64,000 nt of DNA from the NCBI GenBank assembly GCA_023247035.1, contig JAHFHG010000005.1:7515-71514 (forward strand). The letters run 5' to 3'. Numbering within the stretch: position 1 is the first letter of the stretch; every line of letters starts with the position of its first letter. Both the position numbers and the translations under genes were made by a program. Below the pieces are notes generated by a model. It had not been told where the DNA came from, did not search any database, and worked only from the letters and a program-made list of their open reading frames with translations. Shown in pieces: positions 4,964-58,115 of this stretch. This DNA comes from Candidatus Omnitrophota bacterium. GTDB lineage: Bacteria > Omnitrophota > Omnitrophia > Omnitrophales > Aquincolibacteriaceae.

Positions 4964-5521
4964 TCACCTCTTCGAAAGACGTCCCGGGTCCGAGTGTTTT
5001 AAAATCCAGACCCCAAGCCATCCTCCCAATATTCCGATAAAAGCTCCCGCGGCCACATCCGAAGGGTAATGGACTCCTATAAAAATCCTGGAAATTGCGA
5101 CGATGAAAGCCGCCGGATAAACAAACCGGGCCGCCCGGCCATAAAAGAAATGCAGCAGTACGGCTGCGGCAAAGGCTGCGGCCGAATGCCCGGAGGGGAA
5201 GGAGTAGGTATCCGGACGGGCAAAGAGTGTCCGGATCACGATTTCAGGCGGAAAAAAATCATAAGGCCTGGGCCGCATAAAGGCAAGTTTGAGCCCGCCG
5301 GCGAATAAATAGACTATCGTCACGACAAGGGCGAAAGCAAGATAGTCCTTCATCCATCCCTTTTGCCTGGAAATCCACATCACGCAAAATACGACGCCCA
5401 GCAAAACTTCAAGCCGCCCCAATACCGTAGGCCAGCCCAATAAATAATTGAGCCACTCTCGATCGTTGAATCTGTTCATCCACAGGAATAATCGATGATC
5501 CAGGTCAAAAATCCAGTTCAT
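4964..5521 (-). CDS. PAP2-family membrane phosphatase (undecaprenyl-/lipid-phosphate phosphatase-like)
   Basis: PSGHS...GVHYPSDV PAP2 motifs; ORF in track extends to 5599 but the start is probably the internal Met at 5521. Confidence 0.65.
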   Translation of the reverse strand: MNWIFDLDHRLFLWMNRFNDREWLNYLLGWPTVLGRLEVLLGVVFCVMWISRQKGWMKDYLAFALVVTIVYLFAGGLKLAFMRPRPYDFFPPEIVIRTLFARPDTYSFPSGHSAAAFAAAVLLHFFYGRAARFVYPAAFIVAISRIFIGVHYPSDVAAGAFIGILGGWLGVWILKHSDPGRLSKR

Positions 5522-5544
5522 GCGCCTCGCAAAGGAAATCGAAT

Positions 5545-6585
5545 TTACTTGGTGGCAATAAGCATCCAGGCCTTTGGACGAATGAGAATGCGCGGCCAAA
5601 AAGTGATTTTTTGGATGAACTGATAAAGAAATTTTTGAGCCCGCGCCCAGCGGGCGAAGCTTAATTTAGAGGAGGAATGGATCCCCCTTTTTTCTTTGCG
5701 GTCGATATAGTCATCGATAAAAGAAAACAAATGAATCTTCACTTTCCGGAATCCGCCCTGCCGCGCTCTCTTTTCCCACTGCGGAATCGTATAGGCGTTC
5801 TCATTGAATCCCTCGTGAATCGCTTCCTGCAGGGCCTTGCCGGATTTATCTTCAAAAACTCCGAAGGCGCATTCGTGGAGCGCGACCACCCTCCCGTTCG
5901 GACGGAGGACGCGGCGGAATTCATGAAAGAGTTTGGACAAATCTTTGCAGTGATGAATGACGGAGTGGGAAAAAATAATGTCGAAGCTTTCGTCCTTAAA
6001 AGGAAGCGCGCTCATGTCCGCGCTGAGCCGATCGAAATAGCTTCCGTCTTGCTCAAAATAAAGGTCGGCCGTGATCAAATAATCCGTCACATCTAGGGCC
6101 ACGACCTCGCAGCCGCGCTGGGCCATACGCCAGGAAGCCCAGCCGAAACTTGCGCCGACCTCCAGGACTTTCTCCCGGCCCGTCAATCGGAGGAGTTCCA
6201 AGGTTTCAAAAAACCGCCGGGCATTGCCTGCTTGATTTTCAAAGCTCCCGCCGGGCTGGAAGTAACGGCTCCCGTCGCCCGTGGGCAATTGAAGGAAAAG
6301 ATCTTTAAATTGCGTGATGGTCTGGCGGTTGATCGAATATTTTTCCCCGCTTTCTGTGGTAAGGTAGCCGAAAGATTCGGCGTGGTCCTTTTCGTGGGCC
6401 ACTTCCTCGGGCAATATGCCGAGCGCGTTCAATATTCCGTTCTCAATCTTGTAAATTCTCCGGCAAAAGCTGCACTCCAGAATGCCTTCCCGGATTTCGC
6501 GCTCATCTTCAAGCGTCACGGTAAGATTCCACTCGGACTGCCGGCAATCCAAACAGCGGAGAAATGCCAAAAGGTCTCTTCTCAT
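5545..6585 (-). CDS. class I SAM-dependent methyltransferase with N-terminal Trm112-like zinc ribbon
   Basis: N-terminal C-x2-C ... C-x2-C ribbon (CLDC...CSFC, ...ENGILNAL) fused to a Methyltransf_11-like domain (VLEVGASFGW...ALD); overlaps the upstream JAMM gene by 4 nt. Confidence 0.65.
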   Translation of the reverse strand: MRRDLLAFLRCLDCRQSEWNLTVTLEDEREIREGILECSFCRRIYKIENGILNALGILPEEVAHEKDHAESFGYLTTESGEKYSINRQTITQFKDLFLQLPTGDGSRYFQPGGSFENQAGNARRFFETLELLRLTGREKVLEVGASFGWASWRMAQRGCEVVALDVTDYLITADLYFEQDGSYFDRLSADMSALPFKDESFDIIFSHSVIHHCKDLSKLFHEFRRVLRPNGRVVALHECAFGVFEDKSGKALQEAIHEGFNENAYTIPQWEKRARQGGFRKVKIHLFSFIDDYIDRKEKRGIHSSSKLSFARWARAQKFLYQFIQKITFWPRILIRPKAWMLIATK

Positions 6586-7040
6586 AAGACAAAATCCTTT
6601 TTACCCGGCTCCCAGTAAAAAAGATTAGACCCGTGCGCTTTTCCCTGGATCACGGAGACAACCAAATAATCGACGCCCGGGTAAGCGGGCTCTCCTTCAC
6701 AAAGGGCAATGCGCCGGTCTTCCTCTGAAAAATAAGCGCCGGCGTCGATGTGCGAATGATAAATCACGCGGATCCTTTCCTTTTTTCCGCGCATCTCCTT
6801 CTGGATCGCCAATAATTCCTTGGGCTCCATGAAATAAGCGGAGGCGGCCGTCCTCGGAAAATTCACGGGATCTTTTTGATGATATTCATTTTGGACGTTT
6901 CTGCAAGGCCGGAGGCGCGAAAATTTTTCCGGATTCCCTGCCGCGGTTAAGATCAAGCCGCAGCATTCGTTGGGGTATTCGCGTTCGGCCTGCTGAAAAA
7001 TCGGCGTTAAGAATTTTTGAGGAATCGCTAAACGCTTCAT
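6582..7040 (-). CDS. JAMM/MPN metalloprotease, Mec+ (CysO-cysteine peptidase)-like
   Basis: Perfect JAMM motif E...HSH-x7-S-x2-D (HSHIDAGAYFSEED). Track ORF extends to 7205, but its 5' part overlaps the cysM remnant; the likely start is Met56 (MKRLAIPQ). Confidence 0.7.
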   Translation of the reverse strand: MKRLAIPQKFLTPIFQQAEREYPNECCGLILTAAGNPEKFSRLRPCRNVQNEYHQKDPVNFPRTAASAYFMEPKELLAIQKEMRGKKERIRVIYHSHIDAGAYFSEEDRRIALCEGEPAYPGVDYLVVSVIQGKAHGSNLFYWEPGKKDFVL

Positions 7041-7780
7041 TTCATCCACAACTGCGCGCTCAGATACTTGTCTCCGCCGTCCGGGAAAACAATCACGGCA
7101 ACTCCCTCGTCTAAGTTTTTCAGGGCCTGGAAAACCCCGTGGAGCGCTGCCCCCGAGGACGGGCCGACAAGCCATCCTTCTTTGGCCGCGAGTTCGCGCG
7201 TCCATTCGTAGGCCGGCTCGGTCGGAACGGTGACTTTCTCGTCATGAACCGCAGGGTCATAAATCCGCACCGGAACCGAGGAATCCATATTCTTCAGGCC
7301 TTCGATGCCGTGGAATGATTCCGGCTGGACCGCGATGATTTTTATATTTTTGTTTTTTTCTTTCAAAAAACGGCCGGCCCCCATCAGCGCGCCCAGTCAG
7401 AGCCTTTCAAGGGATCGGTATAAATGATCCTTGCCCCGTAAGCCTCAAGGATCATTTTGCGCTCGTAGCTTACATTTTTGGGCGCGACCAATTCAACAGG
7501 AAAAACCATGGCCGCTCCGATCATCGCGTAAGCAGTGCCGGTATTGCCCGAGGTGGAATCCATTAAGGTCTGCCTTTTCCGAAAGACTCCGGAACTCAAT
7601 CCCTCGCGGATCATCCGGTAAGCAGGCCGGGATTGAACCGCTCGGCTTTCGCGTAGATCTCAAGCCTTGGCGAGATTTCCTTCAGAATCCGGCTCAAGCG
7701 CAAAAGCGGCGTGCCGCCGATATGATCCAGCACGGAAAATTTCTTTTCAGCCGTAATCGAAGCGCGCATACCGCATTTTA
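7037..7780 (-). pseudogene. cysM: cysteine synthase (CysM/CysK family) pseudogene: two internal deletions and frame changes
   Basis: Three consecutive ORF pieces in different frames (7617-7780 N-term ...AKAERFNPG; 7384-7614 PAYRMIREGL...TSGNTG...; 7037-7384 GAGRFLK...C-term). The PLP-lysine segment (G-S-[IV]-K-D-R) between NPG and PAYRMI is missing and the reading frame shifts there. About 55 aa is missing between GSDWAR and GAGRF. Confidence 0.7.
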
Positions 7781-8178
7781 CCTAAATGAAGGCTGATTGT
7801 TAATGCCTATCTGACGGAAAGCCCGGGCCATTTTTCCCGGCGGCGGGAGAACCTTTTAGACGAATTAAGACGAACGGCGCCTTATTTGAGCATCATCCGC
7901 TTGAGCGTTTTCATTTTGAGGCGTTTTTGCGGCGGGAAAGCCGAAAAAATTTATTAAACGATTCGGCAGATTTCGTTCTATTAAAGAGTTCGAAACAATA
8001 TCCTTTTCAAGCTACGACGCGAATGAAAGACAACCGGTATATTGAAAAAAGAACATAAAGATCGCGAAAAAATCCATATTTGCCGGCTCCATATCGACCG
8101 GGAGAAGGCAGCATCAAAGGGTTTGTTTCAAAAATTAGTAATGCGGCTTCCGAATGAGTAAGATTATTTCGAAGCGGA

Positions 8179-9825
8179 TCAATCTTCGTGAAGAACGCCG
8201 GCAAGGCCTTTGCCGGCTTTGAGTTCCACAAGCACATAGGGGCCCGGCTTCGAAGAGCGGGGGCGGCGGGTGCGTATTAAAAGGTTGATTCCCTCTCCTT
8301 GGGCAAACCATGCTTCTTCAAGAGGGATCGAAGGATTTTGAGCCGTAAAAGTTTTGATCTTCCGGCCTCGTTTTCCTGTTTTTCGAATGACATCCACCTC
8401 GTAAACGGAACCGTCTTGAGGCTCAAAACCATATTGGACGGCAAGGTCTTTAAAGTTCAGATGATTCCCCTGCAGCTCAAACTGATCCAGAGGATTGGAC
8501 TCCCGGAACCAGTGCTTCGCGATCAGATCGCGCCTTTCGGTTAAGACTTTTGCCAAATATTCGGCGTCTCCGGCCCGGCTCAGCTCGCCGGCTTGAACGA
8601 TCATTTTAATATCTTCATCGGTGAAGGCCGTCATGATTTTTGCAGCCCAAAAGCCGTCTGCCCGCGAAAGGTCTTTAAACGGAAAATACGGAAGCTGGGT
8701 CTTATATTGGGAAGGATCAAAATAGCGGTTATCAAAATAGCCCACGGCCGGGGAGTCGTGAACTTTCTCGCCGGCCTCGCGCCACCTTCTCTGCCAGGGT
8801 TTTTCCCATAACCCCAAACTGAGAAAGGCCTTTGCGGCCGCCCCGTAATCCAAGAAATATTCATGCCCCATGGGCGGAATCTTCGGGCCCTCCGTGGCCG
8901 AACCTAAGGTCATATTAAAATCAATGAGGTAATGCTTCAAAAATGATTTTCCATTTTCCGTGACCAGCATATCCAGCGTATTGCTCTCCCGGACATCGCA
9001 ATTATTCAGCCAGGAGGAAAAAACCTGCAGGGCCCGTATCGAGCGCCTGTCTTTATGATCCACAGGATCTTCAGGATCGTTTTTACGCCTTTTTTGAAAA
9101 CTGAAACTCCCCTTCTTTTCGCCTTTTAAAATTTTACTCGCCGACGCCCTTAACCGCCCCTCGGAATCCAAAGGCAAAAAGAGGATAAACTCTTCCAATT
9201 TATCTGGGGTCAACTTTTTCTTAAAACCCGTGGAGTCGATCACCTTCGCGTTCGGGCCCGGCACGAGTTTCTCCGGCGGGAAAACGACGTTGGTGTATTG
9301 GGGGACATGATAACCCAGGGCGTGATAAAAACGGCTGGCAATGACTTCCGCGCCCGTGGTCAGTTCAAAATAATCCTGCGGATCAAATTTTAGTAAATAC
9401 TCATCGCCCCGGCTGTCCTGAATAAAAAATCCAGGGTGCAGCCCTTCAAATTTGCCGCGGACAATCGTCAAATCGCCGCTTAAATCCGGGCCGTCCGTTT
9501 CGCGCGGACCGTCCTTGAGCTCCTGCGCTGAAAGGCGCTCGCGCCCGTGCCGGTTGACAAAAAACGCGGAATCCGGGACCTCGTCGTAAACATTGACATC
9601 CTTGGCGCGGAGACGTTTGCCGAATAAGGCCCGGTAAAGCCGCTCGAGGTGAAGAAACTGGGTGCCTTCGTAATATAAGTTCTGGTCAAAAACATCGCGG
9701 TAAAGACCTGTTTGATTTTTTTTGAATTCCACGGTCTCCGAGGCATAAACCCCGCGGCAGAGGGCGAAAGAAAAAATCGCGGCAATCAACAAGATGGGCT
9801 TAAAAAGGCGCTCGCGTCTCAACAT
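8179..9825 (-). CDS. secreted atypical kinase-like protein (PI3K/PI4K/HipA-CtkA superfamily catalytic motifs) with Sec signal peptide
   Basis: Signal peptide MLRRERLFKPILLIAAIFSFALCRGVYASE. Gly-rich loop and YLLKF segment; catalytic-loop-like NNCDVRESN (D-x-R-x-x-N) and LIDFNMTLG (IDF[GN]). Aligns with PI3/4K GDRHxDN...HIDFG and HipA GNtDDHlKN. Track ORF begins at 9876; start reassigned to the Met preceding the signal peptide. Confidence 0.45.
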   Translation of the reverse strand: MLRRERLFKPILLIAAIFSFALCRGVYASETVEFKKNQTGLYRDVFDQNLYYEGTQFLHLERLYRALFGKRLRAKDVNVYDEVPDSAFFVNRHGRERLSAQELKDGPRETDGPDLSGDLTIVRGKFEGLHPGFFIQDSRGDEYLLKFDPQDYFELTTGAEVIASRFYHALGYHVPQYTNVVFPPEKLVPGPNAKVIDSTGFKKKLTPDKLEEFILFLPLDSEGRLRASASKILKGEKKGSFSFQKRRKNDPEDPVDHKDRRSIRALQVFSSWLNNCDVRESNTLDMLVTENGKSFLKHYLIDFNMTLGSATEGPKIPPMGHEYFLDYGAAAKAFLSLGLWEKPWQRRWREAGEKVHDSPAVGYFDNRYFDPSQYKTQLPYFPFKDLSRADGFWAAKIMTAFTDEDIKMIVQAGELSRAGDAEYLAKVLTERRDLIAKHWFRESNPLDQFELQGNHLNFKDLAVQYGFEPQDGSVYEVDVIRKTGKRGRKIKTFTAQNPSIPLEEAWFAQGEGINLLIRTRRPRSSKPGPYVLVELKAGKGLAGVLHED

Positions 9826-11158
9826 AGAAATTTGTCCCTTCGTCGCCGTGGGCCCACTCCAATCCCAAGACGGCATGATTTAGAATGCTGATGCGGAATC
9901 CCAAGCCGTAGGACTCCTTGAAATCTTTGAACTGAAAATCCGAAAAGTCCCGAAACACCTGGCCCTCGTCCCAAAAAAGAACCGTATCGAGCTTCCAGTC
10001 TTTGTACTCCCAAATCGTATAACGGTATTCGAGGTTCAACAGCGCGTCGCTCTCGGCAAAAAATCTATTTTGAGCAAAGCCGCGCAGAGTCTGGCTTACG
10101 GAAGGATAAGCGCCGTAACCGCCCAGCTTAGCCATTTGATGAAAAGGGACGTCGCGGCCGGACAGTTCATTATTGTGCTCCCCGTGAAACCGAAGGGCAA
10201 GGACTCGGCGCGCGGAGCCTAAAGTGAAATAACGGCTTGCATCGGCTTCGTATTTGAAATAGCGCGCGGTCGAATTCCCAAGGCCTTCATTAAAATTGAA
10301 TCCCAGGCGCAGGCGCCCTCCCGCGGTCGAATTCTCCCGCTGGTTTCTCGTATCCCAGACAAACTCCGGCCCGATTGAAAGGAGTTCATCGCCGCTTAAA
10401 CCCGGAATAGACCCTGAAGAAAAGATGCGGTCGATAATCCCTCTGCCGCCGTCTTCGCCGTTTGTAATGTTAATGTTCCGGTAGGAAAATTTTAAGTCTC
10501 CGGAAAGCAAAGGATGCGGGGCATAGCCTACGTTTGCGCTGAGCGTTGTCGCCTCTAATTTATAGGATGTCCCGTCGCCCCGGCTTGTGTTTGGCCCGAT
10601 CCCGTGAAAATACTCCTCCGGACGGGATTCGTAGTTAAAAATCCCAAACGCGCGGAAGCCCGTGCCCCCGATACGCTCCAGCCCCGCTTTGGAACCCACC
10701 TCGAAAATCGACCGGTGCGCGTAAGAGGTCCAGCCCTGAACGATCAGGTCCGGGAAATGTGTTTTTTGCTGCGCCATACGGACAAAATCAAATTTTGTCC
10801 CGTTGTTGTTGAGGCCTATTTTGGGCGTAATTCCAAAATCCTGAATTTTCTCGTAGAGGTAGATGGTCTTTTCATACAAGTGTTCTTTCTCAACAAAAAC
10901 AAGGCCCTGGTCGACGGGCCATTTGATGAGTTCAAAAGGATAGACGAGAAAATGAGTAAGGGCATTTTGAGTCGAAGATTCCGGAGCCGGCTCCTTTTTG
11001 AAAATGGCGCCGTAGCGGTCGTAGCTTGCTTGCTCAGCCCAAGCTTGCAAGGAAATCCCCGCCAAGAAAAATCCCAGAAATCCGGCCGCAATTCGAGTGA
11101 AAACTGGGGTAGGTTTCAAAAGACGTGGCATAAGTGTTTCTTTATTACGGCTAGTCAT
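9800..11158 (-). CDS. Omp85-family (bacterial surface antigen D15-type) outer-membrane beta-barrel without recognisable POTRA domains
   Basis: C-terminal Omp85 barrel signature (NLEYRY...VLFWDEGQVF...YGLGFRI...LEWAHGDEGTNFYVETRAPF, terminal Phe); N-terminal signal-like hydrophobic segment; about 150 aa N-terminal region with no POTRA-like pattern. Confidence 0.55.
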   Translation of the reverse strand: MTSRNKETLMPRLLKPTPVFTRIAAGFLGFFLAGISLQAWAEQASYDRYGAIFKKEPAPESSTQNALTHFLVYPFELIKWPVDQGLVFVEKEHLYEKTIYLYEKIQDFGITPKIGLNNNGTKFDFVRMAQQKTHFPDLIVQGWTSYAHRSIFEVGSKAGLERIGGTGFRAFGIFNYESRPEEYFHGIGPNTSRGDGTSYKLEATTLSANVGYAPHPLLSGDLKFSYRNINITNGEDGGRGIIDRIFSSGSIPGLSGDELLSIGPEFVWDTRNQRENSTAGGRLRLGFNFNEGLGNSTARYFKYEADASRYFTLGSARRVLALRFHGEHNNELSGRDVPFHQMAKLGGYGAYPSVSQTLRGFAQNRFFAESDALLNLEYRYTIWEYKDWKLDTVLFWDEGQVFRDFSDFQFKDFKESYGLGFRISILNHAVLGLEWAHGDEGTNFYVETRAPF

Positions 11159-11167
11159 TCTTTTTTC

Positions 11168-13597
11168 TTAACTTCCAAGAATTTCGTGGAAACGCGGCTC
11201 ACGTTTGATCTTTTCAAGCTGCGGCCAGTTGCGGTTCCATTGGAGTTCGGAAACCACAAAAATTCCGATCAGGGAAAACCAGCGGTCTTCAAAACCGGCC
11301 AGCCCTTCGAGAATCCCCACAGCCTCCTCTTCTTCCGTAGACGAACTGTTGGGCTCCAAAACGCTCCCTAAAATGAGAAGGACGTCCGGCTCCACGGTGT
11401 TGGACAAAAGCTCGACGGCCTGCTGGCGGACAGGGTCGGATTCCGGGTGCTCCACAATCCAGGCGTGGATGTTGTGCATCATTTCGAGAGGGTACAAGAG
11501 ATCCAGGTAATGAAAAAGGCGTTCCAGGCTTTCGTCTAAAACGGTTTTGAGCGCCACCCTTAAGTACTTCGGATTCCCGCTCTTGGTTTGACGGTCATAA
11601 AAAAAAATCAATTTTTGAAAATTCTTATAAATTTTCACTTCGCGCGCGATCTCTGTTTTGATGGAAGCCGGGTTGATGGCCAGTTTCGGATCTTTTTCGT
11701 GCATCTGATCCAGCGCTTTTGCGATCACAAACCGGAATGCGTGATCCTGGGTTTCGCTGGAAAGCTTCAGAAGCAGGTCGAGAGCCTCCTGCTTGACGAT
11801 AAATCCCAGCAGCCGCACGGCTCTGCGTTTGGCATCCAGCCCTTCTTGCCGGTTTTCCAGGATTTTTTCCAATTGGTTTAAAATTTCCTGCGGGCCGCTT
11901 TGAAGATAATCCTTCCAGGCCGCCCGATTCAAAGCCTCCGGCCGTCCGTTTAAGAAAACGCGGTGGATGAAAAACCAATAATCATCGTGCGTCAGTTCAT
12001 CCTCAAGGCTGTTTAGGCTCTGATGAACCTGGAAGGCCTCTTCGCGGATCATCCGCTCCACCAGCCGCCTGGCCGAAGCCAGGTTCTGCGATCTCGTGTA
12101 AGCGAGGCAGGCCGTGGCCGCAATTTTTCGGGTATAAGAAGAAGGGTGGTTGATCAGAAATTGTATTTGATGCCAATTTTTTTCATCGTAAAGAAAACTC
12201 AGGACGTCGGTGGCCCGCTGGGCCTTGACGACTTCGGTGTGCGGCCAGCGGTGAAGCAGATGATGGCGCAAGAGATCGGAATAATTTTTACGCATTTGCC
12301 AGGCTAGGAAAAACCAAAGCGGCATCAACGTCAAAACCAGGATGCCGAGCCGTTCATCGCTAAGGCCCAAAAACGGCGCGGCAACGGCAATGTAAAGGCC
12401 GCCCAAGGTTTTTGCGCCTCGGAAACCCAGCATATCGATAATCGGTTTAACCCGGCGCCTGAGCGAACTTGAAAGAGGAAGAAACAGGACTTCCTTACTG
12501 GCCTGCTGAATGGAATAGTTAACGCTTCCGTCGAACGTTTTAAGAAGCAGGCTCGGAATCAGGAGCGCGGGAGAAAGAAAACTGAAAATAGAAAACGCGG
12601 CCAGCCCCAGCGGGAGCAGTTGAAGGGAAAATCCTATTCCAAGATACCGCAGACAAAGGCTGGTCAAAAAAAGCTGGATCAATAAAGAAACGCCGTTCAA
12701 AGAGGCCATAAATCCGCCCAGAAAAGCGGTCCGGTCGTCTTTGCCTAGAATCGCCAGCTCGACGCTGCGGCTGAATTGATTGTCAATAATCGTCGAGGCA
12801 ATCTTGGCGATTATGACGATCAAAGCAAGCATGATCAGGTAAGACGAACGGCGGACAATTTGAGGCCGCGCAGGATTCATCAAGGTAACCGTGAAGTCCG
12901 ACGAGTTCGCAGCTTGGCGCCTCTTCTCCCGGGGGTCGGGTGACTTGCCTGGGGAAGGATCGGAAGGCGCGGCGTCCATCCAATCCCGCGCCGGGACTTT
13001 TTTCCAGATCAAAAAGTTCAGGATCCCGCACAAGAAAAGAAGGCCGGCGACTCCTAAAAGCAAATCCTCCGTCTTCAGCCAGCGCACGGCGGCCTGCGTA
13101 AAAAAACCGCCCATCACTCCTCCGAGGGAGCCGCCGCTGATGATCAATCCAAAAAGACGTTTGGCCTCCGCCGGATTGAAAATATCATTGGCGAGGATCC
13201 AGAACTGCGTGGTCATCGTAATCGAAAAAGAAGCGACCCAGACATAAAAGAATGCGGAAAGATACGGCGTGTTCCGCCGGAACAAAAACCAGAAAATAAG
13301 AAGATTCGAGATAAAAAATGCGGGCACCAAAACGGAAAAGATATTTTTAGGAATGCGTTTGGATAAATAAACGTAAACCGCCACAACAAGAATAAGAAAA
13401 AATCCTTCGCCCATATACATAAACCGCAAATTCTGGGCGCCCAGCTCGGTCAAAAAAAGCGAGCTTCGCACAGGTTTGAGGATATAGATCAGGGCAATGA
13501 TCAGAAAAAAGCTGCAGAACATAAGGAACGTTTTTTTGCGTTCCCCGGGATGGATGTCGACAAACGCGCCCAGCAGCCGGCGCAGGAGTTGGGGCAT
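11168..13597 (-). CDS. TLC/AAA-family nucleotide (ATP/ADP) transporter-like permease fused to C-terminal HEAT-repeat domain
   Basis: N-terminal ~450 aa with 12 predicted TM helices and the TLC signature FW.LAN.I....EAKR.FG (FWILANDIFNPAEAKRLFGLI) matching Rickettsia/Chlamydia Tlc; C-terminal ~350 aa of alpha-helical HEAT/ARM-like repeats. Confidence 0.65.
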   Translation of the reverse strand: MPQLLRRLLGAFVDIHPGERKKTFLMFCSFFLIIALIYILKPVRSSLFLTELGAQNLRFMYMGEGFFLILVVAVYVYLSKRIPKNIFSVLVPAFFISNLLIFWFLFRRNTPYLSAFFYVWVASFSITMTTQFWILANDIFNPAEAKRLFGLIISGGSLGGVMGGFFTQAAVRWLKTEDLLLGVAGLLFLCGILNFLIWKKVPARDWMDAAPSDPSPGKSPDPREKRRQAANSSDFTVTLMNPARPQIVRRSSYLIMLALIVIIAKIASTIIDNQFSRSVELAILGKDDRTAFLGGFMASLNGVSLLIQLFLTSLCLRYLGIGFSLQLLPLGLAAFSIFSFLSPALLIPSLLLKTFDGSVNYSIQQASKEVLFLPLSSSLRRRVKPIIDMLGFRGAKTLGGLYIAVAAPFLGLSDERLGILVLTLMPLWFFLAWQMRKNYSDLLRHHLLHRWPHTEVVKAQRATDVLSFLYDEKNWHQIQFLINHPSSYTRKIAATACLAYTRSQNLASARRLVERMIREEAFQVHQSLNSLEDELTHDDYWFFIHRVFLNGRPEALNRAAWKDYLQSGPQEILNQLEKILENRQEGLDAKRRAVRLLGFIVKQEALDLLLKLSSETQDHAFRFVIAKALDQMHEKDPKLAINPASIKTEIAREVKIYKNFQKLIFFYDRQTKSGNPKYLRVALKTVLDESLERLFHYLDLLYPLEMMHNIHAWIVEHPESDPVRQQAVELLSNTVEPDVLLILGSVLEPNSSSTEEEEAVGILEGLAGFEDRWFSLIGIFVVSELQWNRNWPQLEKIKREPRFHEILGS

Positions 13598-14002
13598 CTA
13601 AAAAAGCCCGCCGCTTTCATCGCTCACCCCAAAGGCATTATCGATGAAACGCACTTGCGGTTCTCCCTGATTCCAAAGGATCGCTAAAACGGCAAATGAG
13701 ACGGGCATTTTTTCCAATTTTTTCTCTTTCCTAAACCATTCGGCAAGATGGATCAATTTCTTTTGTTTGACAAGGCCCACGGCCTCCTCCGGCCTCCCGC
13801 GCTCCGGGGAGTTTCGCGTCTTCACTTCAATGAAGAAAAGCCGTCTGTTTTTTTGGGCGACGGCGTCGATCTCTCCGATCTTGCACCGGTAATTTTTTTC
13901 CAAAATTTTAAAGCCCGCGCGCACCAGATAACCCCAGGCAATCATTTCCCCGCGCCTGCCCAAAGAAAGCTGAAAAGGCTCTTCCCGAGGCTGGAGCTTC
14001 AT
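13598..14002 (-). CDS. yraN: YraN-family (UPF0102) endonuclease
   Basis: GE.IA..YL...G..IL.KN.R...GEIDAVA......F.EVKTR pattern; canonical position downstream of rnhB. Confidence 0.75.
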   Translation of the reverse strand: MKLQPREEPFQLSLGRRGEMIAWGYLVRAGFKILEKNYRCKIGEIDAVAQKNRRLFFIEVKTRNSPERGRPEEAVGLVKQKKLIHLAEWFRKEKKLEKMPVSFAVLAILWNQGEPQVRFIDNAFGVSDESGGLF

Positions 14003-14790
14003 CGAGACTCTTTCTCAACAAAAAAACTGCGGACGGGTGAAAAGCTTTTCCGGTGGACCGGCGAAGGGCCGATTTTTTGAATCATTCGTAAATGCCTCGG
14101 CGTCGGGTAGCCTTTGTGATTTTTAAAATCATAGGCGGGATACAGTTCATCGAGGTGGCGCATCCAGGCGTCCCTATAGACCTTTGCAACAACGGAGGCA
14201 GCGGCAATGACTGCGGATTTTCCGTCTCCTCCGACAAGGGTCTGTTGAGTTAACGGGAGATCGATTCTGGCATTCCCGTCGATCAGCAATACGTCCGGAG
14301 TTCGAGATAGAGAAAGCACCGCCCGCTTCATGGCAAGGCGGCTTGCTTGGAAAATATTCAGGCGGTCAATCTGCTCTTCATCCACGACCCCGACACCGAT
14401 CAGCGCGATTTTCAAAATGGCTTGAAAAAGGATCTCGCGCCGCCGGGCCGGCAATTGTTTGGAATCATTGAGCCCTTGCAAGGCCCCAAGAAGGCTGTTC
14501 GTTCGGATGAAAATAACCGCGGCGGCCACCACCGGGCCGGCTAGAGGGCCTCGGCCGGCCTCATCGACGCCTGCGAACCGGCCGGTCGATTTCGCGGCGA
14601 GGAGAGAATCAAAGCGAAGAAGACGCGCAGTCGTCGACGTGTCCAAAAAATCGGGGCCTTTTAATTTTGAAAGAGAGATTCGTTCACTGAGACTTGTTGT
14701 TCTACGTATTGCTGATGCGGAAAACCGCTGCCCCAGGCTAAAGCCGGCGGCGCGCTTTGGGCCGTTGCGGCGTATTGCAATACGCCGCAA
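13999..14790 (-). CDS. rnhB: ribonuclease HII
   Basis: AGVDEAGRGPLAGPVV catalytic motif; the N-terminal ~45 aa of the track ORF are atypical, so the true start is probably a downstream non-ATG codon. Confidence 0.85.
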   Translation of the reverse strand: MRRIAIRRNGPKRAAGFSLGQRFSASAIRRTTSLSERISLSKLKGPDFLDTSTTARLLRFDSLLAAKSTGRFAGVDEAGRGPLAGPVVAAAVIFIRTNSLLGALQGLNDSKQLPARRREILFQAILKIALIGVGVVDEEQIDRLNIFQASRLAMKRAVLSLSRTPDVLLIDGNARIDLPLTQQTLVGGDGKSAVIAAASVVAKVYRDAWMRHLDELYPAYDFKNHKGYPTPRHLRMIQKIGPSPVHRKSFSPVRSFFVEKESR

Positions 14791-14813
14791 GCAAACCCTT
14801 GGTTTATAGAAAA

Positions 14814-15131
14814 CTATTTCGCTTTCAAATAATAAAGTTTGGCACGCCGCGCCTTCCCTTTGCGGCTGACGGCGATTTTTTCAACGCTGGGCGAATACAA
14901 GGGGAAATGTTTCTCCACAATATCCCCGTGCGTTTCCTTAAGAACCGTAAAGCTGGCTCCGGCTCCGGTCCCCCGGCGGCGGATGCAGATACCCTCGAAG
15001 ATCTGGGTGCGGGTCTTGTCCCCTTCCTTGACGCGGATATGAACCTTGAGCGTGTCCCCTACTTTAAACGCGGGGATCTCTTTTGTGCAGAATTCTTTCT
15101 CAACAAATTGAATGGCTTCCCTTGCTTTCAC
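14814..15131 (-). CDS. rplS: 50S ribosomal protein L19
   Basis: 105 aa, conserved L19 sequence. Confidence 0.9.
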   Translation of the reverse strand: MKAREAIQFVEKEFCTKEIPAFKVGDTLKVHIRVKEGDKTRTQIFEGICIRRRGTGAGASFTVLKETHGDIVEKHFPLYSPSVEKIAVSRKGKARRAKLYYLKAK

Positions 15132-15868
15132 AGATTAGTCTCCTTCTTGATTAAAGTAATTTTTTCCATCAGATCCGGCCGCTTTTTCCGGGTGATCTGC
15201 CGGGAAACCGTTTGACGCCACTTTTCCACTTCCCGGTGATTTCCAGAAGCGAGAATTTCCGGCACTTCCCACCCCCTGAATTTGCGCGGCCGTGTGTATT
15301 GCGGGTACTCCAGATATCCGTGCTGAAAACTTTCCTCTTTAAGAGAGTCTCGATTTCCTAAAACGCCGGGGACAAACCGGATCACGGCTTCCATAAGACA
15401 AAGGGCCGGCGCCTCCCCTCCCATCGTTACAAAATCGCCGACGGATACAACCTGGTCCGCAAGGCGTTCCTGGACGCGGTAATCCACGCCTTCATAATGC
15501 CCGCAAATCAGGATCAAACGCTTCCGCCGCGAGAGCTCTTTGGCCAGTTTCGGGGTTAAGGACTCTCCGCCGGCATCCAGGAGCACGACCCATCCGAGGC
15601 CGCCCGCGCTTTTTAATCCCGGTTTCTTCTCTTTAGCCTGAAGGGCCTCGACACACTCAAAAATGGGCTCAGGTTTCATCACCATTCCGGGACCTCCGCC
15701 GAACGGTTTGTCGTCCACGGTTTTGTGTCTGTCCCGGGTGTGATCCCGCAGATTATGGATCCGGATTTCGACGCGGCCGTTTTGCCGCGCGCGTTTGACG
15801 AGAGACTCCTCAAGCGGCCCCTCAAAAAAATCCGGAAATATCGTCAGCACATCAATCTGAAAGGCCAT
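15128..15868 (-). CDS. trmD: tRNA (guanine37-N1)-methyltransferase
   Basis: 246 aa, SPOUT TrmD core; overlaps rplS start by 4 nt. Confidence 0.9.
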   Translation of the reverse strand: MAFQIDVLTIFPDFFEGPLEESLVKRARQNGRVEIRIHNLRDHTRDRHKTVDDKPFGGGPGMVMKPEPIFECVEALQAKEKKPGLKSAGGLGWVVLLDAGGESLTPKLAKELSRRKRLILICGHYEGVDYRVQERLADQVVSVGDFVTMGGEAPALCLMEAVIRFVPGVLGNRDSLKEESFQHGYLEYPQYTRPRKFRGWEVPEILASGNHREVEKWRQTVSRQITRKKRPDLMEKITLIKKETNL

Positions 15869-49876: not shown

Positions 49877-50976
49877 TAATTCAATTGCATAGGCATCACC
49901 ACGTAGAGATACCCGTCCTTTCCGCGCACAAGGCCCGGCTTATCGGGATCGGTCAGCGAGAGAGAGATTGTTTCAATATCCAGATTTTTTAAGACATCAA
50001 TAAGATAGTGAGGATTAAACCCTATCGCAACTTCATCGCCCGTCACCTCGGCGGGAAGCTCTTCTTTGGCCTCGCCAAGATTCGGCGAGCGCGAAGAGAC
50101 AAGGATTTTGCCACGGATAAAATCCAGTTTGACGGCGGGTGAATCAGGCGAAGTCAGAAGCGCTGTTCTTCGTATCGCCTGGAGAAACTCCTCCCGATTT
50201 GCGGATGAAGTTGTTTTTTCCGTCTTGGGGATAACCTGTTCATAATTTGGAAAATGCCCTTCGATAAGCCGGGAAAACAACTGAGTTTCTCCTAAATTGA
50301 AAATGGCCTGATTTTGAGAAAAAACAATTTGCATTGTCCCTTCCCAAGCAAGCAATTTAAGAAGTTCTTGCACAGCCTTCACAGGGACAATCATCTCGAA
50401 GTGGCGATTATTTTTATTCTTAAACTCTTTTTCAATATAAGCCAGCCGGCGGCCGTCTGTGGAGACAAAGCGGATTTGATTCCCTTTGACTGAAATAAGA
50501 ACTCCATTTAAAACATAACGTGTTTCATCGTAAGAAATTGCAAAGGAAGTTAATCCGAGGCTTTCTTTAACTAAGGACTGCTCAATTTCTATTGCGTCTT
50601 CGCTGGACCATTCGGGGAATTTTGGATAATCCTCTTTGGCCAGGCCCATAATTTTAAAATACGCGGTTCCTGACTTGATATTAACGGCATTGTTTTTCGC
50701 AACTGTAATCTCAATCTCTCCTTCGGGAAGTTCGCGCACAATTTCATAAATTTTTTTAGAGGGAATGGTAATACTTCCAGGTTTGATCACGTGCGCGGGA
50801 ATATTTGTGGAAATCCCAACCTCTAAATCTGTGCCGATCACTCGAAGAGTATCTTGAGTCACGGTCTCAAAGAGAATATTTCCTAAAATAGGGAGTGTGT
50901 TTGTTCGCTGAGAAGCAACGTTTGAAACGTTCCCCAACACCTTTGAAAGGGTGTTCTTTAAAATCTTAATCTCCAT
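49876..50976 (-). CDS. dnaN: DNA polymerase III beta sliding clamp
   Basis: 366 aa, three-domain clamp. Confidence 0.9.
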   Translation of the reverse strand: MEIKILKNTLSKVLGNVSNVASQRTNTLPILGNILFETVTQDTLRVIGTDLEVGISTNIPAHVIKPGSITIPSKKIYEIVRELPEGEIEITVAKNNAVNIKSGTAYFKIMGLAKEDYPKFPEWSSEDAIEIEQSLVKESLGLTSFAISYDETRYVLNGVLISVKGNQIRFVSTDGRRLAYIEKEFKNKNNRHFEMIVPVKAVQELLKLLAWEGTMQIVFSQNQAIFNLGETQLFSRLIEGHFPNYEQVIPKTEKTTSSANREEFLQAIRRTALLTSPDSPAVKLDFIRGKILVSSRSPNLGEAKEELPAEVTGDEVAIGFNPHYLIDVLKNLDIETISLSLTDPDKPGLVRGKDGYLYVVMPMQLN

Positions 50977-51114
50977 AAATATTCTCCTTTGTTTCTAATA
51001 AGACTTTATATTTTAACAAAATAGTCGTCATAATAATAGGCTTTGTTTGTATGTGGATAAATATTTTAACTTGTTTTAAACATTAAAGTTATAAAAATTA
51101 AAAGTTGTGGATAA
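50977..51114. promoter_or_regulatory. dnaA-dnaN intergenic oriC-like segment: AT-rich with two DnaA boxes (TGTGGATAA at 51052-51060 and 51106-51114)
   Basis: Two perfect 9-mers complementary to TTATCCACA in a >75% AT spacer. Confidence 0.6.
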
Positions 51115-52509
51115 TTAACCCCTTCTTTTCAACAAATCCACAAGCTCCTCAATTTGTCTTTTGGTTTGTATATTCTGTTTAACCTCGGCGCCAAGTTTAT
51201 TAAAAGCATGAAGCACGGTTGTGTGGTCCCTTCCCCCAAAATATTCCCCAATTTCAGGCAAAGAATGAGTTGTTACCGACCGAATCAAATACATTGCAAT
51301 TTGACGGGGCCTGACGATTGACCGGTTGCGTCTTTTAGCTCTTAAATCGGAAACCTTCAAATGGAAGTAGTCGGCCACAATGCGCTGAATTTGTTCCATA
51401 CTGATTTTTTGTTCTTCTTCTTTCAAGGAATCCCGTAAGATTTCTTGGGCAAGTTTGAGATTAAGCGCCTTTCCGGTAAGCGTGCAGTAAGCCACCACGC
51501 GGATAAGGGCCCCTTCCAGCTCCCTGATATTCGACCGGATTTTGCTGGCGATAAAAAAGGCGACATCATCCGGAACAACCACCGTTTCCTTTTCCATTTT
51601 TTTTCTCAGGATAGCCACCCGAGTCTCGAAATCAGGAGGTTGAATATCGGTCACCAATCCCCAGCTAAACCGCGAAACAAGGCGCTCTTCTAATCCGGGA
51701 ATATCTTTGGGCGGGCGGTCGCTGGAAACAATGATTTGTTTGTGGGCATCGTAGAGCGTATTGAAGGTGTGAAAAAACTCTTCCTGCGTCGCTTCTTTTT
51801 CCGCGATAAAGTGGATGTCGTCGATCAACAAAAGATCCAGCGTCCGGTATTTATTCCGGAACTGGTGCGTGGAGCGGTTCTGAATGGCTGTGATGAGCTG
51901 GTTGGTGAATTTCTCGCTTGAAATATAAAGCACACGGAAATCCGGGCAGCGTTTTTTAATCTCGTGGGCGATGGCTTGCATCAAATGAGTTTTTCCTAAA
52001 CCCACGGGGCCGTAAATAAAGAGAGGATTATACTGGCGCGCCGGCGCTTGGCAAACGGCCAGGGCCGCGGCGTGGCCAAAACGATTGCTGGGCCCCACCA
52101 CAAAATTTTCGAAAGTATAATGGCTGTTCAACGCGCTGTCGGGCGCATCCCCGTAAGAGCGGCTCTTTGCCGCCTCATTATTTTTGACTGACGCCGAACG
52201 CGGCGGCTCGACAATTTTATATTTGATTTGAAGCGCCGCTCCAAGCGTTTCTTCAACCGCGCTGGAAATCAGGTTTTCATAATGAGTCTTGAGCCAATGC
52301 CCATAATAACTATCAGGCACGCTTAGCGTTATAGAATTTCCGTCCAGATCCAGACAGCGCACAGGCTCAAGCCACGTCTTGAAGGATTGTTCACTGAGCT
52401 CTCGGGCCAAAACTTGCCTGATTTTGTTCCAGGCATTGAGGAACCGTTCAGCCTTTTTTACGACGTCGGGCTGAACAGTTGATAAAGAGGGTATTGAGAA
52501 ATTATCCAC
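51115..52509 (-). CDS. dnaA: chromosomal replication initiator protein DnaA
   Basis: 464 aa; AAA+ Walker A GPVGLGKTHL, C-terminal DnaA signature domain; GTG start overlapped by a DnaA box. Confidence 0.92.
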   Translation of the reverse strand: MDNFSIPSLSTVQPDVVKKAERFLNAWNKIRQVLARELSEQSFKTWLEPVRCLDLDGNSITLSVPDSYYGHWLKTHYENLISSAVEETLGAALQIKYKIVEPPRSASVKNNEAAKSRSYGDAPDSALNSHYTFENFVVGPSNRFGHAAALAVCQAPARQYNPLFIYGPVGLGKTHLMQAIAHEIKKRCPDFRVLYISSEKFTNQLITAIQNRSTHQFRNKYRTLDLLLIDDIHFIAEKEATQEEFFHTFNTLYDAHKQIIVSSDRPPKDIPGLEERLVSRFSWGLVTDIQPPDFETRVAILRKKMEKETVVVPDDVAFFIASKIRSNIRELEGALIRVVAYCTLTGKALNLKLAQEILRDSLKEEEQKISMEQIQRIVADYFHLKVSDLRAKRRNRSIVRPRQIAMYLIRSVTTHSLPEIGEYFGGRDHTTVLHAFNKLGAEVKQNIQTKRQIEELVDLLKRRG

Positions 52510-55304: not shown

Positions 55305-57146
55305 TTGATCATGACGAACAGCAGAAAATACGACTCTATTATCGTGGGCGCCGGACACGCCGGCGTTGAAGCTTCGCTTGCTCTGGCCAGGGCCGGCTAC
55401 GAGATCCTTTTGTTGACGATGTCGCTGGATTCGATTGCAAAGATGTCCTGCAATCCCGCTATTGGAGGACTCGCTAAAGGGCATATGGTCCGCGAAATCG
55501 ATGCCTTAGGCGGGGAAATGGGACGCGCTGCGGATGCAACGGGCATTCAATTCCGAATGCTCAACCGCTCCAAGGGGCCGGCGGTTTGGGCGCCCCGGGC
55601 GCAGGCCGATAAAAAGCAGTATTCTCTTTATATGCGGCGCGCGGTGGAACGTGAGCCGAATATTGATTTAAAGCAGGGCGAGGCGGCGGAGATTCTTATC
55701 AAAAATGGGGCCTGTTATGGGATTGTTACTAAAGATCAGGAAGTTATTTTTTCACAAACGGTTATACTCACCACAGGGACGTTTCTTCAAGGCCTTATCC
55801 ACATCGGAGACGTGAATTTTCCAGGCGGCCGCGGGGGCGAACAGCCCGCCGTAGGTCTATCGGCTTCGTTGAGGAACCACGGCATTGAACTTATCCGGTT
55901 TAAGACAGGCACTCCGCCCAGGCTGCAGGCGGCGAGCATTGACTGGGATAAAACCGAAGAGCAAAAAGGAGACGATCCGCCGCTACCCTTTTCCTTTAGA
56001 ACAGAAAAGCTGTTCGTGGATCAGCTTTCCTGCTATTTAACCTATACGAACGAAAAAACCCACGATTGGATCCGTAAAAACCTCCACCGTTCGCCTCTTT
56101 ATGCCGGAAAGATTACAGGCGCTGGCCCGCGCTACTGCCCTTCGATTGAAGATAAAGTCGTGAAATTTTCCGACAAGGCCCGCCATCAGATTTACTTAGA
56201 GCCTGAAGGAAGGGATACGGACGAAATTTATGTGAACGGGCTTTCGACAAGCCTCCCCGAAGATGTTCAATATGAAGTGGTGCATTCGATCCTGGGTTTG
56301 GAGAACGCAAAATTTATCCGTCTGGCTTACGCGATTGAATATGATTGTGCGCCGCCCACGCAGCTCAAACATTCCTTGGAAACAAAGAAGATCGAGAATC
56401 TTTTTTTGGCTGGCCAGATCAACTGTACTTCCGGATACGAAGAGGCTGCAAGCCAAGGTCTTATGGCAGGGTTGAATGTTATACAAAAATTGCGCCGGCG
56501 TCCCGCTTTTGTACTGGATCGCTCGGAAGCCTATATCGGCGTCCTTATTGATGATCTCGTAACTCGTGGCACTCAAGAGCCTTACAGAATGTTTACTTCA
56601 CGAGCAGAATTCCGGCTGCTGCTTCGCCAGGATAATGCAGATGAACGGCTAACAAAATACGGTTTTGAGTTCGGCCTTATTGAATCAGAGCATTTTGAAA
56701 AATTTCGAGAGAAATCCAAACGGATAAAAGAAGAAATCGTGAGATTAAAATCAACCCGTTTCGAAAACGGAACTTTGGATAGATTTTTGAAAAGGCCGGA
56801 GATTTCTTATCAAGATTTGATTCAAAGAGAAATGCACAGCACAAGTCTAAGCAATGAGGACATCGTTCATGTTGAAAATGAAATTAAATATGACGGGTAT
56901 ATTTCTAGGCAGCTTGCGGAAGTGAAGCGGTTCAAAAAAGTAGAGCAAAAGCAAATTCCAAATCATATTGATTATTCTAACATTGCTGGGATGAGCCGGG
57001 AGGCAAAGGAAAAACTAAGTAAACTCAAGCCGTTTTCTTTAGGCCAGGCAGCCAGAATTCCAGGGATTTCACCCTGCGATCTTTCTCTTTTAGCTGTTTT
57101 TATGGAGAAAAATGCTAGAAGTTATGTTTCACGTGAAACACAATAA
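55305..57146 (+). CDS. mnmG: tRNA uridine 5-carboxymethylaminomethyl modification enzyme MnmG/GidA
   Basis: 613 aa; FAD-binding GAGHAG, full-length. Confidence 0.92.
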   Translation: MIMTNSRKYDSIIVGAGHAGVEASLALARAGYEILLLTMSLDSIAKMSCNPAIGGLAKGHMVREIDALGGEMGRAADATGIQFRMLNRSKGPAVWAPRAQADKKQYSLYMRRAVEREPNIDLKQGEAAEILIKNGACYGIVTKDQEVIFSQTVILTTGTFLQGLIHIGDVNFPGGRGGEQPAVGLSASLRNHGIELIRFKTGTPPRLQAASIDWDKTEEQKGDDPPLPFSFRTEKLFVDQLSCYLTYTNEKTHDWIRKNLHRSPLYAGKITGAGPRYCPSIEDKVVKFSDKARHQIYLEPEGRDTDEIYVNGLSTSLPEDVQYEVVHSILGLENAKFIRLAYAIEYDCAPPTQLKHSLETKKIENLFLAGQINCTSGYEEAASQGLMAGLNVIQKLRRRPAFVLDRSEAYIGVLIDDLVTRGTQEPYRMFTSRAEFRLLLRQDNADERLTKYGFEFGLIESEHFEKFREKSKRIKEEIVRLKSTRFENGTLDRFLKRPEISYQDLIQREMHSTSLSNEDIVHVENEIKYDGYISRQLAEVKRFKKVEQKQIPNHIDYSNIAGMSREAKEKLSKLKPFSLGQAARIPGISPCDLSLLAVFMEKNARSYVSRETQ

Positions 57147-57260
57147 GGCCACAATTTTTCTATCGCTATTCAAGAATTCCAAAAATTTGACGATTTAATT
57201 TAAAAATTATCCTATAATGATCCGGATTCTTTATCGGAAACGTTCTGTTTCACGTGAAAC

Positions 57261-58115
57261 ATGGGAGAAATTATGAAAAATATATTTGCCTTTTGTAATC
57301 AAAAAGGAGGAGTCGGAAAGACAACCTCTGTGGTTAATATTTCGGCTGTTTTGGCTCAAGAATGCCAACGTGTTCTGGTTATTGATATGGATGCTCAAGC
57401 AAATGCAACAAGCGGATTTGGAGAAGAAAAGCCGGGTATAGAATTCACAACTTATCAACTTCTTGTGGAAAATGATCAGCCCCAAAAAGTGATTAAGAAA
57501 ACGGCTATTCAAAATTTGGATTTAATCCCCTCAAATACGGATTTATCAGGCGTGGAGTTGGATTTAATCTCCCGTCAAAGAAGGGAATACATCCTGAAAG
57601 AAAAGGTCAGCCTTATTTCAGCGGATTACGATTACATCTTTATCGATTGCCCGCCCTCGCTTGGCCTGACCACGATTAATGCTCTTTGTGCAAGCGATTA
57701 TTTAATCATCCCAATGCAGTGCGAATATTATGCCCTGGAAGGACTCAGCCACCTTTTAGGCACATTTCAGCTGGTCCAGAAAAACCTGAATCCTTCTTTA
57801 GAAATCGGCGGAGTCATTTTAACGATGGCGGATTTCCGCACCAACCTTACCCAGCAGGTCATTGAAGAGGTGAAGAATTTTTTCAAAAATAAAGTATTTG
57901 ATACAGTCATCCCGCGATCCGTGAGGCTTTCTGAGGCGCCGAGTTTTGGAAAGCCGGCCGTGATTTACGATCCGCTTGCAAAGGGATCAAAATGTTATCA
58001 GGCCATTGCTCGAGATTTTATGAAACGATTCGGTTCGAAAATGGAATTGAAGGAGCCGAAAACACCAGCCTGCGATCAGGAAAAAAGCCGCCAAAAAGAG
58101 GAGATCAAAATATGA
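57261..58115 (+). CDS. parA: chromosome partitioning ATPase ParA/Soj
   Basis: Deviant Walker A KGGVGKTT; 284 aa. Confidence 0.9.
   Translation: MGEIMKNIFAFCNQKGGVGKTTSVVNISAVLAQECQRVLVIDMDAQANATSGFGEEKPGIEFTTYQLLVENDQPQKVIKKTAIQNLDLIPSNTDLSGVELDLISRQRREYILKEKVSLISADYDYIFIDCPPSLGLTTINALCASDYLIIPMQCEYYALEGLSHLLGTFQLVQKNLNPSLEIGGVILTMADFRTNLTQQVIEEVKNFFKNKVFDTVIPRSVRLSEAPSFGKPAVIYDPLAKGSKCYQAIARDFMKRFGSKMELKEPKTPACDQEKSRQKEEIKI

Follow-up and report, generated by a model that had tools for sequence, protein, structure and literature searches.

The DNA considered here is a 64,000-nucleotide (nt) stretch of contig JAHFHG010000005.1 (assembly GCA_023247035.1) from a Candidatus Omnitrophota bacterium, hereafter called the window, and all coordinates are given within it. 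The gene of interest, here named gene X, encodes a predicted exported protein of 548 amino acids with a kinase fold and is located on the minus strand (8179..9825; ATG at 9825, stop codon at 8179-8181), as are the genes linked to it. A longer reading of 565 amino acids, from 9876, is an alternative; the start at 9825 is favoured because homologues align to it and because a Shine-Dalgarno-like AAGGGA lies approximately 10 nt 5' of this ATG. Directly upstream of X is a gene for an Omp85-family outer-membrane barrel devoid of POTRA domains (the 'noNterm' type; 9800..11158, minus strand; Pfam E-value 1.5e-19), the stop codon of which overlaps the start of X by 26 nt and the true start of which is probably M10, at 11131. 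A gene for a TLC-family (ATP/ADP-translocase-like) major facilitator superfamily (MFS) transporter with C-terminal HEAT repeats (11168..13597, minus strand) lies 9 nt further upstream. Promoter and terminator scans over 7600-15200 returned signals at or below the shuffled expectation, and no second copy of X was found inside the window.

From the amino terminus onwards, X comprises a signal-peptide-like segment (residues 1-28; 9742..9825), a conserved N-terminal segment (residues 35-118; 9472..9723) consisting of a helical hairpin at 41-68 and an extended linker, the kinase core (residues 119-330; 8836..9471), a helical subdomain (residues 331-445; 8491..8835) with the invariant residues D390, W393 and R431, and a C-terminal FN3-like beta-sandwich (residues 446-548; 8182..8490), all encoded on the minus strand. 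The core was delimited by translation, conservation, the order of its secondary structures and matches to kinase folds, and the helical subdomain by the helices at 327-442 of a predicted model. The linker carries the motif N78-x2-D-E-V-P-D-S-x-F-F-x-N-R92-H (9547-9594), which is invariant within alignment A1, the alignment used to seed the genome scan described below.

The model of X was predicted with AlphaFold2 using 40 homologues in the alignment, and has a predicted local distance difference test (pLDDT) value of 87 and a predicted template modelling (pTM) score of 0.87. It runs in order through a signal helix, the hairpin at 41-68, a well-packed irregular linker at 70-118, a bilobal core, the helical subdomain and the beta-sandwich. 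Residues 1-28 form a lone helix of low pLDDT; the N-terminal segment has pLDDT values of 81-95 despite containing little secondary structure. In the core, a beta-rich N-lobe with a Gly-rich loop (G124-F134; 9424-9456) precedes an alpha-rich C-lobe with a catalytic loop (D277-N282; 8980-8997). The beta3 lysine K146 (9388-9390) is on the strand at 142-147 and the acidic alphaC residue E160 on the helix at 155-170, the D-x4-N catalytic loop is followed by the metal-binding D302-F-N304 (8914-8922), and the core also holds an invariant block, D250/D253/H257/R261/R264. In a structural search X matched kinase folds, with CtkA as the best match; the fold scores did not separate lipid kinases from protein kinases. 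As modelled, the core of X is a kinase fold of the CtkA / Fam20 / PI4K-II / HipA type, in the PI3/4K-HipA-CtkA-Fam20-CotH branch of protein-kinase-like folds, with the full set of phosphotransfer residues, and its set of motifs is far beyond chance. A preliminary description of this DNA, made from the letters alone, had pointed to two hallmark segments at the right spacing (a D-x-R-x-x-N loop and IDF[G/N]) and to a Gly-rich GKFEGLHPGFF with a YLLKF strand. Direct translation gives D277-V-R-E-S-N282...I-D302 at 8920-8997 and G124-K-F-E-G-L-H-P-G-F-F...Y-L-L-K146 at 9388-9456, and the structural matches bear out the class of fold that it proposed.

Identification by sequence was far less informative. 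X had no match among the Pfam, NCBIfam and PADLOC models. When the single sequence, the full-length profile and the kinase-core profile were compared with PDB sequences using phmmer and hmmsearch, only spurious matches were retrieved (glutathione S-transferase, armadillo repeats and pyruvate carboxylase). Pfam HipA_2/HipA_C was touched just under threshold by 16 of 40 close homologues, at best with 26.8 bits against a cut-off of 27. Residues 127-310 of the kinase core gave a weak PHROGs match to phrog_3162, a phage family without known function (E-value 1.9e-4), and a related atypical kinase fold may be phage-encoded.

The N-terminus of X reads MLRRERLFKPILLIAAIFSFALCRGVYA/SE, with a basic n-region (4 K/R), a 12-residue hydrophobic core (mean Kyte-Doolittle value 2.93) and a small-x-small site. 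This is in keeping with the signal peptide given in the preliminary description; the call is a prediction resting on a heuristic of hydrophobicity and charge together with the wide conservation of the feature. A basic and hydrophobic N-terminal segment is kept in 39/40 and 57/58 aligned homologues, and a hydrophobic N-terminal segment was present in 133 of the 143 representatives that start with Met (~93%). In 40 of these representatives (~28% of the 143) it includes a lipobox-like L-x-[GAS]-C. That the export feature is kept across a switch between signal-peptidase-I and lipoprotein forms argues strongly that the X family works outside the cytoplasm, and the sequences suggest that many members are membrane-tethered, probably at the outer membrane.

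The family is large. A word-indexed search with X yielded more than 890 matches, every one of them annotated as "hypothetical", and an exhaustive profile search retrieved 3,427 representatives of 50%-identity clusters at E-values of 1e-3 or lower (1,009 at 1e-30). Named carriers are found in the Omnitrophota, in which the family appears to be near-core, and in the Zixibacteria, Acidobacteriota, Calditrichia and Krumholzibacteriia. Residues were counted over 149 representatives of 50%-identity clusters. K146 is present in 134/149, E160 (as E or D) in 134/149, D277 and N282 each in 135/149 and D302 in 141/149, so that the conservation of the catalytic and metal-binding aspartates, on which the preliminary description hinged, holds for most of the family. 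All five residues occur together in 116/149 (78%), and since the set is kept across a divergence to ~30% identity, purifying selection on catalysis is indicated. The residue two positions after D302 is G in 103/149 and N in 8/149; the DFN of the window, which had been remarked on in the same description, is therefore a minority, local variant of a DFG consensus. R261, R264, G308, D390 and W393 are conserved in 149/149, R431 in 148/149, D253 in 146/149, D250 and H257 in 145/149, and R92 of the linker motif in 138 of 139 aligned representatives.

At the same time, K, D, N or D has been lost in 27/149 representatives (~18%), near relatives inside the Omnitrophota among them. Three long forms with unannotated C-terminal extensions of 200-620 residues are included in these 27, namely P0227 (1158 residues), P0235 (742 residues, locus L093) and P0261 (969 residues, locus L088). 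The extensions share sequence among themselves (e.g. 'FGGTYQ..LIDDWV.RFN'), and the catalytic Lys and Asp are gone from all three proteins. When the long homologues (742-1158 residues) were checked for fusions, no Pfam domain and no Omp85 or TLC fusion was found.

The most constant feature of the surroundings of X is its Omp85 partner, which in the window is BamA/TamA-like. The genome scan was seeded with alignment A1, as the broad alignment A2 was too divergent, and its 80 loci are biased to the Omnitrophota. After deduplication, 75 loci had 1.5 kb or more of upstream sequence; Omp85 lies directly upstream of X on the same strand in 73/75 by strict coordinates and in the other two on inspection. 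All loci inspected from other lineages (L086, L087, L088, L090-L095) show the same adjacency. The two genes often overlap start to stop. The partner is kept in all cases, including lineages with a degenerate active site and genomes with two copies, and that the coupling does not depend on catalysis speaks for a partnership of a physical or structural kind. X might, for instance, provide the POTRA-less barrel in trans with the periplasmic module that it lacks.

Taken to its conclusion, such a partnership would make X mainly a non-catalytic or nucleotide-binding structural subunit, lending the barrel its periplasmic domain in trans, with the kinase residues of the window copy as ancestral relics or regulatory elements. 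The BAM (beta-barrel assembly machinery) lipoproteins that serve BamA, and the pseudokinase Fam20A that serves Fam20C, are analogies for this role. The retention of Omp85 in every degenerate-site lineage, the 27 representatives with lost residues, the position of the most invariant residues outside the catalytic motifs and the many members that are lipoproteins of outer-membrane type all favour it. We nevertheless consider it unlikely, as the five catalytic residues and the Gly-rich loop are kept both in the window X and in 78% of representatives despite their divergence; the distribution of the transporter described below is a further difficulty for it.

The adjoining Omp85-superfamily gene also bears on whether X could be a secreted, CtkA-like effector kinase, exported in the manner of two-partner secretion (TPS) by Omp85 and acting on a host or prey with host ATP. 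The best match in structure is CtkA, a signal peptide is present in X and such a gene lies next to it, its FN3-like domain is typical of extracellular proteins, and a host-dependent lifestyle has been proposed for the Omnitrophota (PMC10066038). The partner is nonetheless BamA/TamA-like and POTRA-less, the family includes lipoprotein forms in a housekeeping gene context, and it is present in a 5.1-Mb Acidobacteriota genome. The parallel with exported effectors such as Helicobacter CtkA that the preliminary description had drawn is thus disfavoured, and we hold an effector role to be very improbable.

The TLC-family transporter provides the third element. In the window its product scores 47.1 bits with Pfam TLC (cut-off 21) in addition to HEAT_2, and residues 25-438, the whole membrane domain, align to the solved 'ADP,ATP carrier protein 1' (9j3n; E-value 2.5e-5). 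K146, D277, N282 and D302 were scored in each X, and TLC genes were sought in every locus up to a flank distance of 8 kb. By tblastn, among loci with adequate flanks, a TLC gene was nearby in 26/34 cases with an intact X and in 0/24 with a degenerate X; with gene-call evidence and later look-ups added, the counts were 28/35 and 0/26. In the neighbour-joining tree the members without TLC fall into three or four distinct clades at the least, nested among sequences that are intact and linked to TLC. The decay pattern differs from one such clade to another (EDDD, REND, KRND, YNSG, KGNN and others), and still-intact TLC-less members (L034, L050, L051) are found near the base of each. The same chromosomal site occurs with or without the transporter, in the order RNase HII, YraN, [TLC], Omp85, X. 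The coupling between catalysis and TLC suggests a reaction that depends on nucleotides and requires the transporter, and a structural subunit does not predict so tight a tie between residue loss and TLC absence.

Three genomes contain two Omp85-X copies: L029/L064 (CAZKMJ01), L082/L067 (PCVY01) and L023/L034 (JBMONI01). In the first two an intact, TLC-linked copy (L029, L082) accompanies a degenerate, TLC-less copy (L064, L067), and in the third both X copies are intact. Intact and degenerate copies within one genome resemble the Fam20C/Fam20A pair of kinase and pseudokinase.

The order of the genes also varies. The clade of the window has the arrangement TLC-(DUF5329)-Omp85-X, and the order Omp85-X-TLC is found in a deeper Omnitrophota clade as well as in L091 and L092. 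Two TLC genes on the opposite strand are near X in L090, and a very divergent TLC-like gene lies upstream in L086 (Acidobacteriota). The DUF5329 gene, absent from the window, is positioned between TLC and Omp85 in part of the Omnitrophota clade (L003, 6080-6685; L004, 6102-6656); a literature search on DUF5329 found no mention of it. In the distant loci L090 (401-4362) and L091 (8823-15049) TLC is duplicated as a short form and a long HEAT form. Signalling genes are found beside the duplicates; L090 has a Hanks-type Pkinase, and those of L091 are cNMP-binding, histidine-kinase and response-regulator genes.

With the fold, the conservation of residues and export signal, the adjacency of Omp85 and the correlation of TLC with intactness established here, we propose that X is a kinase of the periplasm, that it docks on its Omp85 partner and that the TLC antiporter feeds it with ATP, a proposal that we would accept or reject with about equal readiness. 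X would cross the inner membrane by its Sec signal peptide, or as a lipoprotein in other lineages, and would be the dedicated periplasmic partner, translationally coupled, of the upstream POTRA-less BamA/TamA-like barrel. The window X is most likely an ATP-dependent phosphotransferase acting at the outer membrane's inner face, in the periplasm. From the linkage of these genes we infer an export of ATP that would feed the kinase. In the simplest reading, an antiporter in a cell with high cytoplasmic ATP would deliver ATP to the periplasm and retrieve the ADP made by the kinase. As substrates, we would place clients or components of the Omp85 barrel first; a lipid or glycan of the envelope comes next and is kept in view because of sporadic PAP2 and DgkA neighbours. 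Beyond the observations, we infer that X and Omp85 physically form a complex and that ATP is the donor, as well as the direction in which TLC transports and the identity of the substrate.

Several points weigh against this mechanism. Periplasmic ATP is not known to be available, which would also suit a structural subunit, and a bacterial TLC protein that exports ATP is not known. The product of the window TLC gene reaches 31.4 bits with the NCBIfam equivalog TIGR00769, far short of the cut-off of 387, so its nucleotide specificity is putative. The Fisher p value of 1.4e-9 for the tblastn counts is not corrected for shared ancestry, the tree of X is a rough neighbour-joining tree, and for seven intact members no TLC gene was in reach. 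The active-site assignment in X rests on the order of motifs and on fold matches, and the residues under the strictest conservation (R261, R264, G308, D390, W393) are not the canonical catalytic ones. The core role of the X-Omp85 pair may even be non-catalytic, given that the ~18% with lost residues keep Omp85.

Another account is suggested by a gene for a PAP2 lipid-phosphate phosphatase in the window (4964..5599, minus strand; Pfam PAP2 E-value 1.6e-24), a possible, looser associate of X. In L004, L020 and L029 the gene that follows X directly downstream is a PAP2 gene, and L091 has PAP2 and DAGK_prokar upstream. X could then be an envelope lipid or glycan kinase, similar to PI4K-II, MavQ or Fam20B, in a lipid phosphate cycle of the outer membrane or periplasm with PAP2, and Omp85 and the MFS transporter would serve the trafficking of lipids or precursors rather than the supply of ATP. 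This account, which we regard as quite unlikely, differs from the proposed mechanism only in the substrate and in the role of the transporter. The PAP2 linkage is sporadic compared with those of Omp85 and TLC, the fold scores favour neither class of kinase, and the transporter is homologous to nucleotide carriers and not to known lipid flippases.

The remaining genes in this part of the window, all on the minus strand, bear on other functions. Between X and a Prok-JAB gene lies a cysteine synthase (CysK/CysM-like; 7037-7800) that is split over three frames, with pieces at about 7610-7790, 7384-7614 and 7037-7384, and is either a pseudogene or affected by assembly frameshifts. The Prok-JAB gene (6582-7205) probably has an annotated start too far upstream, since it overlaps the cysteine-synthase remnant; together the two resemble a sulfur-carrier cluster of the CysO/CysM/Mec type. 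It is followed by a gene for a Trm112-like zinc ribbon and S-adenosylmethionine (SAM) methyltransferase (5545-6585), and many Omnitrophota loci have such a JAB-methyltransferase pair downstream of X. With housekeeping genes as flanks and no PADLOC matches, an origin of X in a defence island or phage was ruled out. Further along the window, the GC content falls to ~0.42 at 50000-52000 and 56000-58000, against ~0.51-0.53 elsewhere; near 53 kb the mostly minus-strand genes give way to plus-strand ones and the GC skew flips sign, which could be an island or a replication-related switch.

Textbooks treat the outer membrane as an ATP-free compartment. Taken jointly, the evidence suggests an undescribed ATP-fed phosphorylation system of the bacterial envelope; if true, ATP-dependent chemistry is brought to the outer membrane. 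The literature searched holds no description of the X family, its envelope location, its pairing with a noNterm Omp85 or the catalysis-linked association with TLC, and we found no described case of a resident envelope kinase family of diderm bacteria paired one-to-one with Omp85. The kinase fold is already known; the family, which comprises 3,400 or more clusters at 50% identity and is wholly unannotated and absent from Pfam and NCBIfam, and the three-gene envelope module are undescribed. The co-variation of TLC with intactness offers a testable answer to how ATP-dependent chemistry could reach the periplasm and outer membrane, and also to the question of the function of POTRA-less Omp85 proteins and of free-living TLC/HEAT transporters. 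We suggest tentatively a broader picture, itself rather doubtful, of an envelope phosphorylation module in several diderm phyla, in which TLC would export ATP in exchange for ADP and fuel an Omp85-docked kinase at the outer membrane, with targets such as barrel-handled proteins or lipids. Some "ATP/ADP translocase" genes taken for markers of energy parasitism in the Omnitrophota would instead serve this module, and dead paralogues would be pseudokinase partners similar to Fam20A. The ATP/ADP translocase K03301 in Omnitrophia and Aquiviventia was used by Seymour et al. (2023) as a marker of symbiosis and energy parasitism (PMC10066038). Should they prove to be the TLC homologues that are linked to Omp85-X, that conclusion may need revisiting. 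We would also advise caution before energy parasitism is deduced from TLC homologues in uncultured phyla.

Compared with the TLC/NTT antiporters of Rickettsia, Chlamydia and plastids, the neighbour of X is similar in scoring above the Pfam TLC cut-off and in its alignment to an ADP/ATP carrier of solved structure, but it is far under the equivalog threshold, has a C-terminal HEAT domain and occurs in non-intracellular bacteria; the proposed ATP-out direction is the reverse of energy parasitism. Known examples of the kinase fold itself are cytoplasmic (HipA), belong to the eukaryotic secretory pathway (Fam20) or are secreted effectors (CtkA). HipA_C and HipA_2 of Pfam gave no match to X itself above the gathering threshold, and hhalign of the X core profile against E. 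coli HipA was insignificant (probability 0.4%). Unlike HipA/HipT, X has Omp85 and TLC as neighbours instead of a HipB or HipS antitoxin gene and is exported, whereas HipA is cytoplasmic; a HipA toxin-antitoxin module was ruled out on these grounds. The sequence of CtkA (Helicobacter pylori JHP0940; 3akj) was not retrieved from the PDB sequences by phmmer or hmmsearch even at E-values up to 10. X is twice as long as CtkA, adds the conserved N-terminal segment, the helical subdomain and the FN3-like domain, and, with a classical signal peptide or a lipobox, is obligately partnered by Omp85; it belongs to a large environmental family, whereas CtkA is a strain-specific virulence gene.

SEAE1, a new bacterial putative lipid kinase of the PKL (protein kinase-like) fold, has K140, D216, N221 and D241 and a PAP2 neighbour (bioRxiv 10.64898/2026.09.18.752743). 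Compared by description, this PIK-like protein shares the D-N-D spacing of X, but it is reported as non-secreted, its Lys-to-Asp distance is ~55 residues shorter and no Omp85/TLC context is reported (bioRxiv 10.64898/2026.09.18.752743). Classical two-partner secretion was ruled out by the lack of POTRA and TPS domains: the window Omp85 is not a TpsB protein with two POTRA domains and a ShlB-type barrel, and X has no Pfam match to the TPS domain of TpsA, its N-terminus being a helical hairpin and linker and not a beta-helix. A closer likeness is found in Leptospira, where noNterm Omp85 genes are followed directly by genes for exported (lipo)proteins and TPS-like export or surface display has been discussed (PMC11358297). 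The Omp85-X pair likewise consists of a POTRA-less barrel gene with an exported-(lipo)protein gene immediately downstream; the downstream proteins of Leptospira carry DUF1566 or Big/integrin domains, however, and not a kinase fold, and TLC is not reported there (PMC11358297).

X gave no match to Pfam Fam20C. The Fam20 / four-jointed secretory-pathway kinases (Fam20C, Fam20B and the pseudokinase Fam20A) form a eukaryotic family of the Golgi lumen, whereas Omp85 and TLC, the partners of X, are bacterial. In the eukaryotic secretory pathway the Fam20 kinases of the lumen rely on imported ATP, and a pseudokinase is among their paralogues; it is this arrangement that the proposed X module would mirror.

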